Below are positions 368-11,115 of a DNA stretch of 16,660 nt, piece by piece (within the stretch, counting starts at the first letter, position 1; every line of letters starts with the position of its first letter). This DNA is from Leptospiraceae bacterium (GTDB lineage Bacteria; Spirochaetota; Leptospiria; Leptospirales; Leptospiraceae). Below the pieces are notes generated by a model that made no database searches, was not told the origin of the DNA, and saw nothing but the letters and a program-made list of their open reading frames with translations. The translations under genes and the position numbers were made by a program. The stretch is from NCBI GenBank assembly GCA_016711485.1, contig JADJSX010000013.1:214889-231548 (forward strand), read 5' to 3'.

Positions 368-1191
368 GGAATCCCAAACATGTCCATTACCTTTTATAAA
401 ACTCACGAAAAACAACTTGAGAAAATTCTACAAGACTATAAAAAGAAAATTTCCAAATCGGATAACGAACTATTTACCGATCCATCCATTTCTCATTTTA
501 AAAGATTTGAAACTGAATTATTTAAACACAAACTTCGCCCTTACCAAATGGAAGCGCTGTATATTCTAGATGCTCTCTACACTCAAAGTAAATCCGATAA
601 GGATATAAAGAAACTCTATGAAAAACTTTTAGAGTCACACGGAAAAGAAAATCCAGTTAAGATTCCTTTTATTGGCTATGAAATGGCAACCGGATCAGGC
701 AAGACAACGCTAATGGGGGCATGTATCTGTTATCTGCTAGAGCAAGGAATTAAAAACTTTCTAATCATTACACCAAAGTCCTTGGACATATACAATAAAA
801 CAATTCGCAATTTCACAAAAGGGGGAGCTGATTCTATTTGGGATAGAGAAGCGCCTGTTAAGTTTAATCTAATAACAGGAGATGATTACAACCATTTACA
901 ATTTAATTCTGATAAGGACTTTAATTTATTTATTTTCAACATTGACAAATTCGGTCCCAATGCAAACAAAACATCGAAAGAGTGGGAGAGTTCTTACTTC
1001 AAAGATAAGAACGGAAATACGATCAGCGTAAAAGAATTTTTAGAAAATGAAGACCTTGCTATTATAACGGATGAAGCTCATCACTCACAAAGTCAGAGTG
1101 CTGGTGGTTCGGGAAATATTAGAGTTGTTGCAAAATTAGAAATATCCTAAAAAAAGCTTGTACAAAAACAATCGAGTTATTTATTTTCTGT

Positions 1192-1563
1192 ATGAAGAAT
1201 ATAGAAAAGATATTAAAAAAGAAACGACTTTGTCAGGCATTGACAGGAGTATCGCCTGAAAAAATTTATGAAAGTCTTCCCTATTTTGAAATTGAATTAG
1301 AAAAACATGACAAGAAAGAAAAGAAATCATCGAAAGGAAGAAAAACTGAACTAACAAATTCGTTAGAGAAATTATTTTTCATTCTATACTATGTAAAATG
1401 CTATCCCACATTCGATGAAGCAGGCTTTTTCTTTGGCGTCGATAAAGGAACAGCAAATCGGTGGGTTCATAAGTATTCGAAAATACTAGAGTCTACTTTA
1501 AAAACAATGATGCTATTACCCGCACGAAAGCCTAAAAAGATTACTGATAAATTGAAAAGATGA
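1192..1563 (+). CDS. IS transposase OrfA (N-terminal HTH part of a DDE_Tnp_4 transposase).
   Basis: 123-aa ORF. The motif ...LFFILYYVKCYPTFDEAGFFFGVDKGTANRWVHKY... is typical of the N-terminal region of IS5/Harbinger-type transposases. It ends at a TGA overlapping the -1-frame start of the catalytic part. Confidence 0.7.
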   Translation: MKNIEKILKKKRLCQALTGVSPEKIYESLPYFEIELEKHDKKEKKSSKGRKTELTNSLEKLFFILYYVKCYPTFDEAGFFFGVDKGTANRWVHKYSKILESTLKTMMLLPARKPKKITDKLKR

Positions 1564-2195
1564 AAGAAAATAATGAAGAAATTTTTATTGATGGAACTGA
1601 AAGACCCAGAAGAAGACCGAAAAATAAGGATATTCAAAAAGAAAACTATTCAGGAAAAAAGAAACGGCATACAGTTAAAAATTTAGTTATTACAAATCGA
1701 AAAAAAGAAATCTTATATACCCTTCGCCAAAAGTAATTTCCCTTTTTGTAAAAAATAGGGTATTCCCAAACGCCAAAAATAAGACTCTTTTAAAAACGAA
1801 TGGGTAATTACTTTTGGCGTTTGGTATATTTATCTAACACAGTGCAAGGCTCAATGCATGATTTCGTATTGATGAAAGAAACACTAGTCAAAAATTATCT
1901 TCCGTCCGAAATGAAAGTTTATGTCGATACTGGATTTCTAGGCTTCCAAAAACTAAGTCCTGATCTAAATATCTTTATGCCTAAAAAGAAACCTAAATCT
2001 AGAACTCTTTTTCAATACGAAAAAAAACAGAATAGAAAGATTTCAAAACTTAGAATTCTCGTTGAACATGCAATAGGCGGCATAAAGAGACTTCGCGGAG
2101 TCACTGATGTATTTAGAAACATCAAAAAAGGATTTTCAGATTTAATCATGAATATATGCTGCGGATTATGGAATTTAAACTTGAAAAAATTTTAG
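1560..2195 (+). pseudogene. IS transposase OrfB (DDE catalytic domain, -1 frame relative to OrfA), disrupted by a MITE insertion that introduces a stop at 1735-1737.
   Basis: Frame 1560+3k reads MKENNEEIFIDGTERPRRRPKNKDIQKENYSGKKKRHTVKNLVITNRKKEILYT, then a stop inside the inserted element. The same frame resumes as VYLSNTVQGSMHDFVLMKETL...YVDTGF...ILVEHAIGGIKRLRGVTDVFRN, giving the DDE triad (D in IDGTE, D in YVDTGF, E in VEHAIGGIK) and the family signature SGKKKRHT. Confidence 0.7.
1717..1828. mobile_element. MITE-like ~110-bp non-autonomous element (copy A) nested inside the IS transposase gene.
   Basis: Imperfect ~26-bp terminal inverted repeats: left 1715-1740 TATACCCTTCGCCAAAAGTAATTTCC, and the reverse complement of the right end 1803-1829 ATATACCAAACGCCAAAAGTAATTACC. 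An internal third copy of the repeat core (1761-1785 TATTCCCAAACGCCAAAAATAAG) forms a perfect 13-bp hairpin with the right end. It is flanked by a TA/TAT duplication (TATATA / TATAT). Removing 111 bp restores an uninterrupted transposase (…EILY-LSNTVQGSMHDF…) that matches DDE_Tnp_4 spacing. Confidence 0.6.
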
Positions 2196-4711
2196 ACTAA
2201 CATAAAATCGAATTTTGCAACAACTCTATTATAAAAAACTTTCATCCCAAAGTAGTATTGGAATTTACCGCAACTGCTTTAGAAGATACAAAGTCAGACG
2301 AGAAACGTGCTCAAAAGGTCGTTTATAAGTATGATATCAGAAAATTCTTAGAACAAAAATATGGAAAACGAATAAAAGCAGTTGCACTGGATACCGAATC
2401 CATTAAACGAACAAAGAAAACGGAAATTCCTGACTCAGAAAAATGGAAGCTAATTACATTATACCTCTTTCATATTCTAAAAAAGAAAGCCTTACTTTTA
2501 TCAGAGAGCACAAAAAATTTAAAACCATTGGCTCTAATCAAAGTAAAAGATGATTCGATTTATGCAAAAAAAATCTATGACTATATTATAAATGAACTCC
2601 CAAATGATGAATCCAATATAAAAATCATATTAGAGAAAATTAAGACAGAAGAAATAGATGTTGTTCCTACTCTTAAAGCTGTTCTAGAAGATTTATTTCA
2701 ATTCGATCTAACCAAAATTAAAAAAGAATTAGAACGATTGATTGTGGCAAAAACTTTACTTTATTCAGGAGATTTGGACAAAGAACAAAAAGAGGGATTC
2801 CTAAAAATCCAAACTAACTTATACGAAAGCATTGTTTTTATTAAACGTCTAGACGAAGGAATTGATTTACCGAATATTTACACCATTGCTGTTATCAACG
2901 ACAATGAATCAGACTTTAAAACTTCGGTTAAGCAGATTATTGGTCGCGGCGTTCGACTGCCAAAGTTAACAAGAGAATATGATGAGGAACACGATTTATT
3001 ACAAGCTCAATCAGAAATTCTACATATAATATGCGATAGAGGCAAGAATTTTGAAAAAATCATCGAGGACATTAAGGCTGAATTTGATTTGAATGAATTT
3101 TTATTTTCTAACAATTCTAAGCATAAAGTCACAATAACCAACATTGTAAAAAAACATTTACTGAAAGATAAAAAAATTCCAATCATTAAAGCATCTGATA
3201 AAATAAAGAAAGATGTAACATTAGACGGACTCATGTCAGATACGGATGCAATCGTGAACTCATATATTCAACATAATTGCACGCCAAATCCTGATAAGTC
3301 GAGAGTTTACTTAAAATTTGCCCCTACTTCTTTTTTCACAATTATAGATATTTTCTCTGATGATTTCACTTTCTTAAAGGCAATGGAAGAAAAAGGAATA
3401 CCGTCCGAAAAATTTCAAATCAATGAGGATGATTATAAGGAGATTTATACAAGGATTGTAAAAAAAGTTCCTCATATACCAGATAGTGCGAAATACAAAG
3501 ATTATTTTAAAAAATACATTGATCATCTAGTTCAAAAAGATTTTTATTTTTTTAAATCAGACGACGCGGATAAAGAAATTGCTAAAAGGAAATTCAAAGA
3601 TTCATTTTGTTATTTTTTTGATAACTATATTCACAAACATTATTACCAACCAGATTATAAACAAATTCATGAAGACCAATATTTAGAATTGGAAGATATT
3701 TTTAAAGATGTAGAAATTTCTATTCAGCAAGATGCGATAGGATCTAAACAAAAGAAAAAATTAGAAACCTTAGTTCATGATTTTGCAAAAATGGCAGAAC
3801 TAGTCAAACAAGGTCATTATTTTAATGGATATAAATACTCTTTATATGATTACACAAGATTTGATTCTTATACAGAAAAACAATTAGCGGATTACTTGGA
3901 GGAACTGATTGGAAAATTAGAAAATCCAGAACAATATTTTTGGGTAAAAAGTGAACGGCAGTTTAGTTTTCAATATGGTAACCAAAGATACTTTCCGGAT
4001 TTTTTATTTCATTATTCTGATATGATGAATATTATCGAGACGAAAGCAGAGCCGTTTTCAAATCAAAAGAAAAATGCACTGTTAGAAAAAGTAAATGAAA
4101 TAGATGGGTATCGCGGAATTTTAATTTACTCTGATAAAATGGATGATATCCAAAAACAAAATAATGATGTTCCTTTTGAAGATTTACTTGGAGTTTCGAA
4201 GCAGTCATTCAAATATGAAAAATATAAAAATCATCTTATCTATAGTATAGAAGAGAATTTAAAGTTCACTGAATTTTTACCTTTCTATTCCGTGAAAGCA
4301 GCCGCAGGTGCGTTTAGTGAATCGCAAGAAGCTAATCCTGAAGGATGGCTTCCAGTAAAAAAAGGCAAATATTCCAAAACATCTTTTGTGATTCAGGTCA
4401 AAGGTCATTCAATGAGTCCAAACATTTTCGATGGAGATCTTTGTATTTTTGACAATCATTTCGTTGGTTCAAAAAATGAAAAAACCGTATTGGTGCAACA
4501 TAGAGACATTTTTGATCCAGATAACGGAGGAAAATATACCGTTAAGCGTTACTACAGTAAGAAAATTCAATCAGAAGAAGAATTGATTGGAAACTATAGA
4601 ATAGAATTAAAACCAACTAATTCTAATTACAAATCTATTATTCTTGAAAAAGCATTAGAGGCTGAAATTAAATTTATAGGAGTCTTTGTAGATACAGTAG
4701 CATTACCTCAA

Positions 4712-4737
4712 GCCGAATAAAGATTCGGCATTTTTTT
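4712..4737 (+). terminator. Rho-independent terminator of the helicase-nuclease-peptidase gene.
   Basis: Stem GCCGAAT (4712-4718), loop AAAG, stem ATTCGGC (4723-4729), followed by a T7 run (4731-4737). The stop codon TAA lies inside the stem-loop. Confidence 0.55.
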
Positions 4738-5971: not shown

Positions 5972-6034
5972 GCCCCTTCCCTAATCCTATTTTTGTATCT
6001 CCTGCTGTTAAATAGAGAGCTTCAGGGAAGGGGC
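5972..6034. repeat. GC-rich inverted repeat or hairpin (11-bp stem GCCCCTTCCCT / AGGGAAGGGGC, 41-nt loop) downstream of the DUF1016-SNase gene.
   Basis: 5972-5982 is the exact reverse complement of 6024-6034. There is no following U-run, so it is not a canonical intrinsic terminator. Confidence 0.5.
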
Positions 6035-6148
6035 AACTTGTGAGTATTCTATTGGAGTAAAAAACTAGAACTAAGAAAAGGTCTTAATGGAGCATTGCGA
6101 AGTGTTAAAGAGAAAAAGTCTGAGCTGCGGGTTTTCTTTTCTTTTTTG

Positions 6149-6195
6149 CTTACTTTTTTCTTTTCTTTTTCATAAAAGAAAAGAAAAAAGTAAGA
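6149..6195. repeat. Perfect ~21-bp polypyrimidine/polypurine inverted repeat (hairpin) with a 5-nt loop.
   Basis: CTTACTTTTTTCTTTTCTTTT (6149-6169), loop TCATA, AAAAGAAAAGAAAAAAGTAAG (6175-6195). Confidence 0.6.
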
Positions 6196-6268
6196 ATCCC
6201 CCCACGGGAGTGGAGATAATAAAGATCTCCCCCACTGGGCAGCGGTAATAAAAAATAATCTCCCTCTG
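6195..6268. repeat. Imperfect tandem direct repeats with C5-6 cores (AATCCCCCCACGGGAGTGGAGATAATAAAG / ATCTCCCCCACTGGGCAGCGGTAATAAAAAAT / AATCTCCCTCTGAG...).
   Basis: Two or three adjacent units of ~30 bp share ATCTCCCCCAC-GGG followed by an A-rich tail. The C/G-rich cores stand out in an AT-rich genome. Confidence 0.45.
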
Positions 6269-6312
6269 AGAAAAGAAAGTCCGACAACGACGACGCGTTA
6301 GGGATCGAACGA

Positions 6313-6348
6313 TGTCATCTTTTTTTATCTTTTTGAAAAAAGATGACA
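6313..6348. repeat. 13-bp inverted repeat or hairpin (TGTCATCTTTTTT / AAAAAAGATGACA) with a 10-nt loop.
   Basis: 6313-6325 is the reverse complement of 6336-6348. Confidence 0.5.
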
Positions 6349-6503
6349 ATAGTGAGAGCCCGGCGCATTTAACGAAAGAATAAATCAAAATAAAAATTAG
6401 TTAAGCTAAAACTTTAAATGCGCAACGCCCCAAAAAAAGTAATAAATTCAAGGTTTCTAATTACCACCGGAAACAAGGATATTAAAATCTCTTTCCACTA
6501 AAA

Positions 6504-6533
6504 TTCTACTTGCTTGTAAACAAATCTTACAAT
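6504..6533 (+). promoter_or_regulatory. Weak candidate sigma70-type promoter for cstA (-35 TTCTAC, 18-nt spacer, -10 TACAAT).
   Basis: TACAAT at 6528-6533 lies 13 nt upstream of ATG 6546. No SD is visible, so the transcript would have a very short leader or be leaderless. This call is speculative. Confidence 0.2.
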
Positions 6534-6545
6534 GCTTAGTAAAGC

Positions 6546-8399
6546 ATGCTTCCGATGATCATTGTTTTAGTCTGTCTTATTACCTATTTTTTTGGATATC
6601 GTTTTTACTCTCGCTACTTAGCCGAAAAAGTTTTTGGGCTTAGGGATAAAGAATTTATTACCCCAGCACATAAACACAATGACGGTGTGGACTATGTTCC
6701 GACTAAACCAAACGTTCTATTTGGTCATCATTTCGCGTCTATCGCTGGGCTTGCTCCAATTTTGGGACCTGCAGTAGCTGTAATTTGGGGTTGGCTTCCT
6801 GCAATGGTTTGGGTTGTATTGGGTGGAGTATTCATGGGTTGTGTACATGACTTTGGCGCACTCATTGTTTCCGTTCGCCACGATGCAAAATCAATTGGTC
6901 AAGTGGCTGAAGATTTACTCGGACATAGAGCACGTTCTTTATTTCATATCATTATTTTCTTTTTAGTTTCTCTCGCTATGGGAGTGTTTGTATTAGTCAT
7001 TGCCGGACTTTATTCAGCTCCACCAAAACCTATTGAAATAAAATCTCCGACTGTATTAGAGCAACCCGTTACAGTAAAGGAAGTAAAAGAAGGACACGAC
7101 AGCGGAGATTTGCAAAAAAAGGAACCTACAAAAATCCAACTTAGAAGTAATTTTCCAGAATCAGTAACTCCAACTTTAGTATTGATGCTTTTAGCGGTTA
7201 TCGTTGGTTACCTCCACTATAAAAAATCTTATCCTCTTGGTCCACTCACTGTTCTCAGTTTTTTTATTACCCTTTTTGTAATCTACTTTAGTATGGATGA
7301 AAGTTTTCTCGGTTTTATCGGTTTAAATGATATAGATAGGGCACCTTCGACTGATGCTTGGAAATTAATTTTGCTGGCCTATGCATTTTTAGCTTCTGTA
7401 ACACCAGTCTGGTTATTATTACAAAGTAGAGATTATATAAATTCATTCTTGCTCTATTTGGGGATAATCCTAATTTATCTCGGTTACTTTATAGGAAGTA
7501 TCAATGGAAATTTTCCGAGTTTTAACGCGGCTCCCCTTCGAACTGAGGAAATCGGAATGGATATTCTACCATTTGTATTTATTACAATCGCTTGCGGTGC
7601 CATTTCTGGATTTCATGCACTCGTAAGCTCTGGAACTACAGCCAAACAAATCAATGTAGAAAAAGATGCACGGGTCATTGGGTATGGCGGAATGATTGGC
7701 GAGTCTCTTCTTGGGCTAACAGCCGTTATCGCCTGCACAATTGGATTTTCTTCCATGGAAGAATGGAATTCTTATTATAAATCTTGGTCTGGTTTACAAG
7801 GATTAAACGTTCAAGTTGGAGCATACATCTATGGAACAAGTCGTTTTTTAGGTCAACTTGGAATTCCAGAAAAATTTGGACAAGGATTTATCGCACTAAT
7901 TGTAATCAGTTTTGCACTCACATCTTTAGATTCAGCGACCCGACTCCTTAGATACAACATCGAAGAAATCGTTCATTCTATTGGTTCAAAACCCCTCAAT
8001 CTACTACTTGCAAATCGTTACTCATCTAGCATTCTAGCTTGTGCTTCCATTGCATTCTTTGCATTTCTCAAAATAAATGTAAATGGACAAATGAAACCAG
8101 CAGGGCTTGCACTCTGGAAAGTATTCGGAACTACAAACCAACTACTTGCCGGTTTATCATTGTTAGTCGTATTTATTTATTTATTAAAATCCAAAAAACC
8201 AACGATCAATATATTCATTCCAATGATATTTGTATTACTTGTTACCCTGTGGGCAATGGTTGGAAACTTTTTAGAATTTGTGTCTGGAGCTACACCAAAT
8301 TATCTGCTTGCTTGCGTGGGTGGAATATTAATAGTACTGACAGTTTGGCTTTTGGTAGAAGGAATATTAGTTTGGAAAAAAATAAAAAAAGTCAATTAA
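6546..8399 (+). CDS. cstA: Carbon starvation protein A (CstA family peptide/pyruvate transporter).
   Basis: 617-aa polytopic membrane protein. The N-terminal ...[16 protein letters not shown]... and overall hydrophobic architecture with a central loop match CstA. Internal overlapping ORFs (7592..7780, 8039..8407) are spurious. Confidence 0.9.
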
Positions 8400-8727
8400 A
8401 ATCCTGAATCGCACTCCCTTCCGAATCATAGAGTTTAAAACTTAAGTCTAGCTTAGTTAGGGCAAACAAACGTTTTACTTCATCACTTAAATCAGCAAAT
8501 TTAATAGAGATACCTTTCTGTTGGCATTCAAAAAATAGATTCGTCAGAAATCCTAAACCAGAAGAATCAATAAAATGAACTTTTTTAAGATTAAATAAAA
8601 TTTTAGAATTTTCACTACGAGTAAGTATTTTACAGAATTTTTTTAATTCAGGTACAGAATACAAATCCATGGAATTCTCTATACTTACTATATTTACACC
8701 ACCAATAATTCTATGTGAAAAAGCCAT
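8392..8727 (-). CDS. STAS-domain anti-sigma factor antagonist (SpoIIAA/RsbV-like), paralog 1.
   Basis: 111 aa carrying the ...[16 protein letters not shown]... hallmark (phosphorylatable Ser in DSSGLG). An SD AAGAGGA lies 8 nt upstream of the start on the - strand. The 3' end overlaps the cstA 3' end by 8 bp, and the two genes are convergent. Confidence 0.85.
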
Positions 8728-8867: not shown

Positions 8868-9206
8868 TTAAGTTCGAAATGAATAAATTGCATCTTGAAT
8901 TGATTCATAAAATGCATAATTCTGAGATAATTTTGTAACAGCAAAAACTCTCTTTGCCTCTTTACTTAAACTCGCTAGTTTAATTTCAATTCCTTTCTGT
9001 TTACATTCAAAAAATAGATTCACGACCATACCAAGTCCCGATGAGTCTACAAATGTAACATTTTCCATGGAGATAATGATCTTACTATTAACCGACTTTA
9101 GCAATGATTTTGCAAATTTTTTTATTAACGGTGTAGAATATAAATCAATAGAACCTTCCAGACTAAGTATATCGACTCCGTTTTCTTCTCTATGAACATA
9201 ACTCAT
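8868..9206 (-). CDS. STAS-domain anti-sigma factor antagonist (SpoIIAA/RsbV-like), paralog 2.
   Basis: 112 aa carrying ...VTFVDSSGLGMVVNLF.... It is about 45% identical to paralog 1. An SD GGGAGA lies upstream of the start. Confidence 0.85.
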   Translation of the reverse strand: MSYVHREENGVDILSLEGSIDLYSTPLIKKFAKSLLKSVNSKIIISMENVTFVDSSGLGMVVNLFFECKQKGIEIKLASLSKEAKRVFAVTKLSQNYAFYESIQDAIYSFRT

Positions 9207-9464: not shown

Positions 9465-9574
9465 TATACCCAACGTCAAAAGAATTTTCCTTTTATTAAA
9501 AGATGGATATTCCCAATTGCCGAATAAAAGGTTCATTTAAAATGAATAGGTAATTACTTTTGGCAATTGGTATA
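9465..9574. mobile_element. Second, diverged copy (copy B) of the MITE-like element, in the divergent intergenic region between the STAS genes and the kinase gene.
   Basis: The ~110-bp sequence aligns along its full length with 1717-1828 at roughly 75% identity. It has the same three-repeat architecture: left terminal repeat TATACCCAACGTCAAAAGAATTTTCC, an internal copy ATTCCCAATTGCCGAATAAAAGG, and a right terminal repeat GGTAATTACTTTTGGCAATTGGTATA. It is flanked by TA. Confidence 0.6.
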
Positions 9575-9810: not shown

Positions 9811-11115
9811 ATGCAGAATTATCCAACTAGCGAATCAAAAATTTTACTAGATAAACCACAAATTTTAATTGTGGATGACGATCGTAAAACTTTTGAATTA
9901 TTCAAAATCGCACTGGAAAATAAATACGAACTTACCTTTTGTTCAAACGAATTAGAAATATTTGAACAAATTAATTTTCCTTTTTCCGCAGCCATTATAA
10001 ACATAAAGTTGGAAACCAAAAATGAATTCAAAACCATTCAAGAAATTAAAAATAAAAACATAAATATTCCTATTATTTTTCATTCAGACTATAAAGACTC
10101 AATCAATACAATCATAATTAAAAATGAATATAAACCGTTCGCATACGTTATAAAAGAAGAAAACTTTAACAAACTCCTCGACACCTTAGAAAGTGCAGTG
10201 CAATACTTTCAACAAATCAATCAAAATTTAGTTTTGGCTCAGACGTTAGACAAGTTAGAACATAACTATAGAGACTTAGTAGAGAACTCTCCCGATATTA
10301 TTTTTTCACTAGATGAGAATTGGAGACTAATTTCAATTAATGAATCAGTAACACAAATTTTACGTTATCCGGTAAAGGAAATATTAAATAAAACAATATT
10401 GAACCTAGAATTTAAATTAAATAACCCAACAAGTGGAATTTTAGAAAAAAAATTACAAGAACTTACATTATCCCAAAATACTATCTCATTCAATTGTGAT
10501 TTGGTTACCAAATTTGGAGAACCAAAAGAGATGCATTTAAAGTTACGATATGTAAATCAGAAAAATGGACACACTTTTTTTGGTACTGCCACAACAAATG
10601 AAGAAGATATACTATTGCGTATCTGTGAATCCGAATCACAGATTTATAAATTAGGAAATTATTTAACTCATGTAGATATTATTACACAGAGATTAGCAAA
10701 TTATTCTTCAAAGTATTGTACGCCAGAAATTCTTATGAACCTAAAACTATGTATTAGAGAGTTAATCATTAATGCAATGGAACACGGAAATTTAGGAATT
10801 AGTTTTGAAGAAAAATCCGAATCTCTCATGAATGGAACATACATTGAACTACTCATCAAAAGACAAAGAAACAAAACACATGCCGACAAACAAATTACGG
10901 TCGAATACTCATTAACCCCAAAAAGGATAGAAGTAAAAATCACTGATGAAGGAGAGGGATTTGATCATCAAAAAATGTTATCTAGATCAATTAACCAATT
11001 AGATGATAATATCCTCGGTCACGGTCGCGGAATTGCCTTAGTAAAAAATTATATAGACTCAATAGTTTACAATGAAAAAGGAAATTCTGTACATATAATA
11101 AAGAATTTTATTTAA
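9811..11115 (+). CDS. Three-domain regulator: N-terminal receiver-like domain lacking the phospho-acceptor Asp (pseudo-receiver), a PAS domain, and a C-terminal HATPase_c anti-sigma-factor-type serine kinase (RsbW/SpoIIAB/RsbT-like).
   Basis: The receiver-like region has ILIVDDD...AAIINIKLE (Asn where the conserved Asp is expected), ...IIFHSDY...YKPF. The PAS-like region is SPDIIFSLDENWRLISINESVTQILRYP. HATPase_c motifs: ELIINAMEHGN (N-box), ITDEGEGFD (G1), GHGRGIALV (G2). Confidence 0.75.
   Translation: MQNYPTSESKILLDKPQILIVDDDRKTFELFKIALENKYELTFCSNELEIFEQINFPFSAAIINIKLETKNEFKTIQEIKNKNINIPIIFHSDYKDSINTIIIKNEYKPFAYVIKEENFNKLLDTLESAVQYFQQINQNLVLAQTLDKLEHNYRDLVENSPDIIFSLDENWRLISINESVTQILRYPVKEILNKTILNLEFKLNNPTSGILEKKLQELTLSQNTISFNCDLVTKFGEPKEMHLKLRYVNQKNGHTFFGTATTNEEDILLRICESESQIYKLGNYLTHVDIITQRLANYSSKYCTPEILMNLKLCIRELIINAMEHGNLGISFEEKSESLMNGTYIELLIKRQRNKTHADKQITVEYSLTPKRIEVKITDEGEGFDHQKMLSRSINQLDDNILGHGRGIALVKNYIDSIVYNEKGNSVHIIKNFI

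Follow-up and report, generated by a model that had tools for sequence, protein, structure and literature searches.

The 106-nt segment at positions 9467 to 9572 of the window (the whole 16,660-nt stretch of Leptospiraceae DNA analyzed here) is a non-autonomous, TA-duplicating miniature inverted-repeat element (MITE), and across the family to which it belongs the two arms of a stem formed between an internal repeat, R', and the right end, R, evolve in concert. As the cause we prefer, with a confidence of about one half, pairing-dependent concerted evolution within a TA-duplicating MITE that has no function at this site, rather than a functional hairpin maintained by selection. An unusual abundance of MITEs has already been recorded in Leptospirales (PMC11602168), and this family, from uncultured Leptospiraceae, has apparently been undescribed until now. 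Co-varying hairpin arms are a phenomenon already known for similar bacterial repeats.

The window holds two copies of the element, copy A and copy B (Table 1). When the pattern TACCNNNNGNCAAAAGNANTTNCC, a consensus of the four terminal inverted repeats (TIRs), was searched for with up to two mismatches, only four sites were found in the window, at 1718-1741 (+), 1803-1826 (-), 9467-9490 (+) and 9549-9572 (-), forming two inverted pairs; the shuffled window gave 0.01 matches. Copy A is flanked by TA at 1716-1717 and 1827-1828. The preliminary description had placed copy B at 9465-9574, a span that comprises the element and one TA on each side. It had also put the identity of the two copies at about 75%; their full-length collinearity was confirmed, while the measured identity is higher, at 81% (86 of 106 aligned bases), and agreement of this kind over the full length makes it unlikely that they are unrelated repeats aligned by chance. 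Covariance model R1 scored copy B at 104.3 bits and copy A at 137.7 bits. No open reading frame (ORF) of at least 60 amino acids lies inside copy B, and a single one (1800-2195) overlaps copy A, being a displaced 3' portion of a transposase gene, with its ATG within copy A.

In copy A the internal repeat pairs with the right end over 13 bp without a mismatch, as had been described. In copy B the perfect stem is of 9 bp, CCAATTGCC (9513-9521) with GGCAATTGG (9562-9570), and it extends to 12 bp (9513-9524 with 9559-9570) when one G.T is allowed. From copy A to copy B an A-T pair has become T-A and a C-G pair has become T-A; these pairs are adjacent and differ on both arms, so the earlier statement that the arms changed together holds. 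R' of copy B, the partner of the right end in this stem, is itself a direct but degenerate copy of a TIR, the resemblance of R' to the TIR extending over approximately 20 nt (TTCCCAAACGCCAAAAATAAG versus TACCAAACGCCAAAAGTAAT). The best internal match to the right ends of subfamily 1 (SF1), to which both copies belong, covers 12 to 13 of 14 positions, compared with a mean of 7.75 of 14 for shuffled 14-mers (95th percentile, 9), and is therefore beyond chance.

Table 1. Coordinates of the two MITE copies, their parts and the insertion sequence (IS) that hosts copy A, given as positions in the window
Feature	Position	Strand	Basis or remark
Copy B with flanks, TA-TACCCAACGTCAAAAGAATTTTCC...GGTAATTACTTTTGGCAATTGGTA-TA	9465..9574		sequence
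Left TA flank of copy B	9465..9466	.	presumed TA target duplication, one copy; sequence
MITE copy B, subfamily 1 'AATT' type, 106 nt	9467..9572	+	TIR matches, alignment to copy A
Left TIR of copy B, TACCCAACGTCAAAAGAATTTTCC	9467..9490	+	TIR-pattern match
Internal repeat R' of copy B, CCAATTGCCGAA	9513..9524	+	perfect core 9513-9521; minimum-energy DNA fold
Right TIR of copy B	9549..9572	-	R'-pairing arm 9559-9570, TTTGGCAATTGG
Right TA flank of copy B	9573..9574	.	sequence
MITE copy A, subfamily 1 'AAAC' type, 109 nt	1718..1826	+	TIR matches, covariance model
Vestigial inner end L' of copy A, AGGGTA	1757..1762	+	directly 5' of R'
Internal repeat R' of copy A, CCAAACGCCAAAA	1766..1778	+	
Right-end arm of copy A, TTTTGGCGTTTGG	1812..1824	+	13/13 complementary to R'
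Host IS of copy A	1122..2226	+	TIRs GAGTTGTTGCAAAATT.., 5-bp duplication TATTA

Of the features expected of a MITE, small size (98 to 119 nt, noncoding), TIRs, a target duplication, multiple copies and insertion polymorphism were found. The clearest record of an insertion is copy A, which splits a DDE_Tnp_4 gene such that positions 1-44 of the Pfam profile lie to its left and positions 43-158 to its right, in one reading frame; as the profile halves are contiguous and in frame around the element, exactly 111 nt (109 nt plus TA) have been added. A scan for the end pattern in one genome per species returned 59 stretches, of which the true relatives all fell within five Leptospiraceae/Leptospirales metagenome-assembled genomes. 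From the Leptospiraceae/Leptospirales loci 30 complete elements were extracted, each with a 24-nt TIR at both ends and nearly all flanked by TA on both sides, the exceptions being those at loci L013 (both sides) and L038 (right side). All but copy A are intergenic, save the element at L057, which the ORF caller placed within a long ORF. An empty site (L014) could be aligned with a filled one (L044), with a blurred junction and a flank identity of 75%. The earlier designation of copy B as a MITE copy is thus upheld by its TIRs and TA flanks, the many copies, the empty site and the 109 + 2 nt that copy A adds to a transposase gene. Elsewhere, the organism of the window was found on one contig only (L001), in which copy B is identical; its nearest protein relatives are Leptospiraceae sequences of approximately 63% identity, and contigs of another genome carry copies 97 to 99% identical to copy A. 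A scan of both strands of the whole window against Rfam 15 gave no match at the gathering thresholds.

The IS that hosts copy A is IS5-like, with an HTH_Tnp_4 ORF followed by the DDE_Tnp_4 ORF in the -1 frame. It was considered as the parent of the MITE and rejected, as its ends (GAGTTGTTGCAAAATT) and 5-bp duplication TATTA stand against TACC..GCCAAAAG and TA in the MITE. The region 380-4720 of the window is a three-level nest, in which copy A lies in the IS5-like IS and the IS in turn lies in a ResIII-helicase / S24-peptidase gene; the halves of that gene (380-1121 and 2232-4720) regain a common frame once the IS is taken out together with one TATTA. Identification of the element accounts for two intergenic or pseudogene features of the window.

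Together with two metagenome contigs, the five metagenome-assembled genomes of Leptospiraceae/Leptospirales yielded 33 related elements in total. These make up one family, divided into three subfamilies, with lengths of 98 to 119 nt, 24-nt TIRs and a TA target duplication. SF1 (106 to 119 nt, mostly about 109 nt) comprises both window copies and 12 others and, of the three, has spread most widely and been active most recently; elements of SF2 are approximately 110 nt and those of SF3 approximately 98 nt. SF3 is homologous to SF1 only if read in reverse, and the same orientation was picked by an SF1 covariance model built from a MAFFT alignment of 13 SF1 copies (A2). When run over 353 kb of loci, the SF1 covariance model found no further full copies. 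One SF1 copy on a UBA2033 contig block (L008, 1718-1826) has the same coordinates as copy A in the window, with different flanks and 90% identity, and the match of coordinates appears to be a coincidence.

All three subfamilies share one order of parts: the left TIR on the outside, then L', which repeats the left terminus briefly and in inverted form, 0 to 3 nt, a direct copy of a terminus (R') and the outer right TIR. In copy A, L' is complementary to the left terminus TACCCT (1718-1723). The middle of the L074 element reads GCATTTGGTA-TA-GACCAAACGC, that is, two ends abutted over TA, and each half has matched ends, AAATG in L and L' and AAACG in R' and R. The simplest reading is that the elements of about 100 nt descend from two tandem foldback units that are now mobilized via their outer ends, and that R' is what remains of the inner end of unit 2. 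The preliminary description had reported an internal hairpin; the pairing is confirmed, and its inner arm is not an arbitrary sequence but the inner terminal repeat, now degenerate, of an element made of two units. In SF3 the first unit is little more than two copies of the TIR around a 5-nt loop, and in SF1 the L:L' stem is down to 5 to 6 bp. Derivatives were also observed: at L017 (1630-1825) two different elements are joined by a common TA, at L053 (4141-4203) a 63-nt derivative has its left terminus fused to R', and at L033 (5361-5394) there is a mini element of 34 nt. These provide examples of element shrinkage and fusion.

A single strand of the element can fold either as one long hairpin between left and right ends or as two hairpins (L:L' and R':R), and single-strand folding found the elements to be bistable between the two forms. 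For copy B and for SF3 the two-hairpin form is the minimum-energy fold. RNAalifold, given no structure as input, predicted the same two-hairpin fold from the alignment A2.

Within A2 the R':R stem is 95.3% paired, and pairs 54-114 and 55-113 have changed on both sides in five copies. Pairing between the left and right TIRs reaches only 76.6%; it is mismatched in 11 to 12 of the 13 copies just where the right end covaries with R', and essentially every shuffle scores higher. The larger set of copies therefore bears out the covariation first seen in the window, in the R':R stem and not in the TIR-TIR pairing. SF3 supplies a third matched state of R' and the right end (CCGATTG/CAATCGG), and its 12-bp left hairpin has two more compensated pairs. 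G.T intermediates were found in L003, L004 and L057. To cover the whole family, an alignment of the stem alone (A4; 33 elements with 24 distinct sequences) was fitted by the author to the stem. In A4, four pairs have changed on both sides: pair 5-28 is AU in 13 elements, GC in 7 and GU in 2; pair 7-26 is UA in 12 and AU in 10; pair 8-25 is UA in 13 and CG in 10; and pair 10-23 is CG in 13 and AU in 3. The covariation score of this alignment, itself fitted to the stem, was 0.273 compared with 0.134 for shuffled alignments, a value reached by none of 500 shuffles, which ignore the relatedness of the copies; with the partner arm slid out of register the score was at most 0.088. The arms are of 8 to 13 bp and are separated by 33 to 43 nt. 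Between subfamilies the loops have diverged past alignment while the stems have been kept, and the R' columns of A2 are nearly as conserved as those of the TIR.

The compensated states are common to whole clades, as the AAAC, AATT and GATT haplotypes, and independent double-sided events are few, perhaps three or four lineage splits. Such a clade-wide distribution points to a small number of events in active lineages and not to selection on copy B. Among single-sided changes, the G.U type and the C.A type are equal in number, with no preference for either strand. Tolerance of stem mismatches had been named beforehand as something that would speak against the hairpin. Individual copies (L008, L058, L044 and L038) do carry uncompensated mismatches, as expected of decaying insertions, and the covariation holds at the level of the family.

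The preliminary description had offered selection or intramolecular homogenization as the reason for the paired changes, and both remain live explanations. According to the one that we prefer, a change in one arm would be carried over to the other, which lies nearby, by intrastrand template switching or mismatch correction in the quasi-palindrome during replication. Template switching in quasi-palindromes is established as an error of replication through which imperfect inverted repeats become perfect (PMC7202029). Binding of the transposase would keep the right arm fixed outside positions 5-8 and 10, where constraint is loose, and it is exactly these positions of the ends that vary. The concerted changes would have arisen in lineages of active elements, from which copy B would have inherited them; nothing indicates that copy B itself functions at its site.

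The main competing explanation, a serious one although less probable in our estimation, is that the R':R and L:L' hairpins are required for function and are kept by selection in active elements. One possibility is that the two-unit fold brings the ends of a very short element together for synapsis; another is that the stem offers a double-stranded copy of the terminus within single-stranded DNA. Stems that are kept while loops diverge are also a classic signature of selection on structure, and double-sided stem changes are found here across three subfamilies whose loops differ in both sequence and length. Conservation of R' near the level of the TIR in A2 and the two-hairpin minimum-energy fold of copy B and SF3 are likewise consistent with a selected hairpin. 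A mutational cause is nevertheless favored by several lines of evidence. The left hairpin has decayed to its 5 to 6 bp in SF1, which is the most successful subfamily. In the related family M1, from other metagenomes, the internal repeat decays, yet M1 has proliferated to dozens of copies. The covarying positions are exactly those that are free to vary in the ends, and the lack of orientation bias, with wobble-type intermediates equally frequent for either strand, points the same way. Furthermore, the chemistry of IS630/Tc1-mariner elements requires no hairpin, as the transposase of ISY100 acts alone on duplex 24-bp ends (PMC2170065). The family provides a clean natural example in which nearby inverted arms coevolve and the canonical end-to-end pairing does not; paired compensatory changes in mobile repeats thus need not mean an RNA function at the level of the host.

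It is unlikely that the complementarity simply records the origin of the elements, with units born as perfect inverted duplications of one end, or as mini-MITEs with matched ends, and the subfamilies assembled independently from units with different end variants. The L074 element does resemble a heterodimer in which each unit has its own matched ends, elements do land side by side via a common TA (L017), the first unit of SF3 is barely more than two TIR copies and a 5-nt loop, and the AAACG, AATTG and GATTG variants recur in unrelated families. Against such an origin, the AAAC and AATT types of SF1 are collinear and approximately 80% identical through the R'-R loop and the first unit, from which it follows that they had a common composite ancestor and that both arms changed later; the existence of G.T intermediates (L003 and L057) also argues against it.

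A further proposal, which we consider quite improbable, is that ultra-short elements targeting TA have the double foldback as a functional adaptation, in which extruded hairpins would juxtapose the termini at the internal junction and selection for mobility would keep the stems. If this were true, the double foldback would solve the problem of bringing into synapsis two 24-bp ends that lie approximately 60 bp apart, with extrusion taking place in single-stranded or supercoiled DNA, and DNA secondary structure would be a previously unrecognized requirement in transposition of the IS630/Tc1-mariner type.

Some Tc1-like elements have inner transposase-binding sites, and R' is TIR-like over some 20 nt, so that R' could be an additional binding site with haplotypes that track variants of the transposase. 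We regard this as very unlikely. At positions 5-8 these elements show no matching change in the left TIR, and within a single M1 element the two ends differ, reading AAACG and AATTG, which indicates that matching at the variable positions is not needed for mobility.

Copy B lies in a gap of 604 nt between two STAS genes on the minus strand (8392-8727 and 8868-9206) and a receiver-PAS-HATPase_c_2 gene (9811-11115), next to which, downstream, is a gene for a 7TM-SpoIIE phosphatase, and these gene coordinates agree with the divergent setting described previously. The two STAS genes are tandem paralogues, visible as a 65-nt direct repeat (8636-8700 and 9115-9179) that is 71% identical. A regulatory or RNA-level role had been suggested for the element on the basis of this position. 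No bias in orientation relative to neighboring genes was identified among 30 copies, with 7 arrangements codirectional with both neighbors, 7 opposed to both, 6 divergent and 3 convergent, and a scan of copy B for promoters and terminators found no such site; the suggestion is thus not supported. That the hairpin works at the RNA level, as a signal for transcript ends, stability or processing that affects the STAS or kinase genes, is highly improbable: many bacterial MITE-like repeats are transcribed and stably folded, bcr1 has compensatory changes at the RNA level (PMC3184786) and copy B does occupy a divergent intergenic region, but Rfam holds no match, copy B has no terminator-like or promoter-like site, orientation relative to genes is random, G.U changes are not in excess over single changes of the C.A type, and the element is missing from kinase-gene homologues whose downstream context is conserved among them. 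For annotation, caution is advised in that copy B should be given no regulatory meaning without expression data.

One further copy near a kinase gene was observed. At L003 (4875-4983; the same locus as L161) an AATT-type SF1 copy lies approximately 113 nt upstream of a kinase homologue (6001-7386), in the same orientation as copy B. This homologue is 63% identical to the receiver-PAS-HATPase_c_2 gene of the window and has a different gene context. The closest homologues of the L161 kinase that have the same downstream genes (L153-L160) are without the element. An ancient, conserved insertion was therefore rejected for copy B; the differing context and the absence of the element from L153-L160 make it more likely that copy B and the L003/L161 copy are independent insertions.

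Among the known systems with which the family was compared, RUP of pneumococcus and bcr1 of Bacillus are the closest analogues. REPINs, which are mobilized by RAYT, and palindromes derived from IS200/IS605 elements are short and noncoding, can form one long or two small hairpins and have these hairpins as the feature that is recognized. They differ from the present family in having no target duplication and no long TIRs, with GTAG/CTAC or asymmetric ends. Membership among REP/REPIN elements was accordingly rejected on the TA duplication and the 24-nt TIRs ending in TACC/GGTA, and an IS200/IS605-type palindromic element was rejected because the ends are inverted repeats over 24 nt and a duplication is present. 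RUP of pneumococcus resembles the family in length (about 107 bp), in being noncoding and in its TIRs and insertion at TA, and it often lands inside IS transposase genes, as copy A does; it reaches about a hundred copies per genome and is thought to be mobilized by IS630-Spn1, which has similar ends (PMC2229807, PMC3049150). RUP belongs to a different phylum, and its TIRs pair with each other (PMC3049150), whereas in the Leptospiraceae family the right end pairs with the internal repeat and the left-right pairing is mismatched. The Correia (NEMIS) elements of Neisseria similarly have TIRs of 24 to 26 bp, a terminal TA, a length of about 100 to 150 bp and a stable hairpin (PMC2229807), but their TIRs pair together and they carry IHF-binding and promoter motifs, neither of which was found in copy B. 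The MITE-like mobile repeat bcr1 of the Bacillus cereus group has a cruciform-like predicted fold, with two independent stem-loops that compensatory changes maintain (PMC3184786, reviewing Klevan et al. 2007); it is larger (about 155 bp), has a 5-bp duplication and is known to be transcribed, whereas the present family has a TA duplication and 24-nt TIRs and gave no sign of transcription or of a strand preference. IS630/Tc1-mariner elements such as ISY100 share with the family imperfect TIRs of 24 bp, which the ISY100 transposase fully protects, and insertion at TA with its duplication (PMC2170065), but they are autonomous and of approximately 950 to 1,200 bp.

The consensus of the 24-nt ends is TACC-N4-G-Y-CAAAAG-W-A-W-TT-W-CC. 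The same ends also bound MITE families of unrelated organisms that are much richer in GC or in AT, and the common ends suggest a widespread cut-and-paste transposase of the IS630/Tc1-mariner type. This assignment draws on two features only, duplication of TA and a TIR length of 24 nt, since no cognate autonomous IS with the same ends, and so no transposase, was found in the 167 loci. We take the family ends to resemble the Tc1 end GGCCAAAAAGATATCC. In the search for a parent, pairs of ends lying 160 to 3,500 nt apart were listed and ORFs inward of single ends were inspected. Two such pairs, at L067 (1,002 nt) and L076 (1,162 nt), were set aside, as neither encloses an ORF for a transposase and L076 consists of several MITEs in an array. 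Among the ORFs inward of single ends a transposase was found only at L006, where an ISAzo13-family gene (852-2068; PF07592, E value of 6.6e-109) was rejected as the parent because it has no matching left end. Immediately after that gene comes a GC-rich MITE that shares this end and of which the right half is present, and L006 is probably an IS within or beside a MITE. A plasmid BLAST search with copy A and the GC-rich TIR variant returned no match or short chance matches only, a scan of viral contigs for the ends gave three stretches that were taken as chance matches, two of them on contigs equal in length to metagenome loci with no more than an unpaired match to the TIR pattern, and a text search of the literature for the end sequence returned unrelated primers only.

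At least two other MITE families with this end consensus were observed at loci L061-L152. An AT-rich family from Ga0308414/Ga0308419 samples has elements of 97 to 99 nt and approximately 32% GC (for example, L065, 1201-1299, and L106, 756-854). A GC-rich family from soil- or rhizosphere-like samples has elements of approximately 110 nt and 60% GC with internal GC hairpins (for example, L094, 1258-1367, and L137, 5102-5211). Within the window itself, an inverted repeat of two perfectly matching 21-nt arms around a 4-nt loop (CTTACTTTTTTCTTTTCTTTT / AAAAGAAAAGAAAAAAGTAAG) lies at 6149-6194, between a DUF1016-nuclease gene and cstA.
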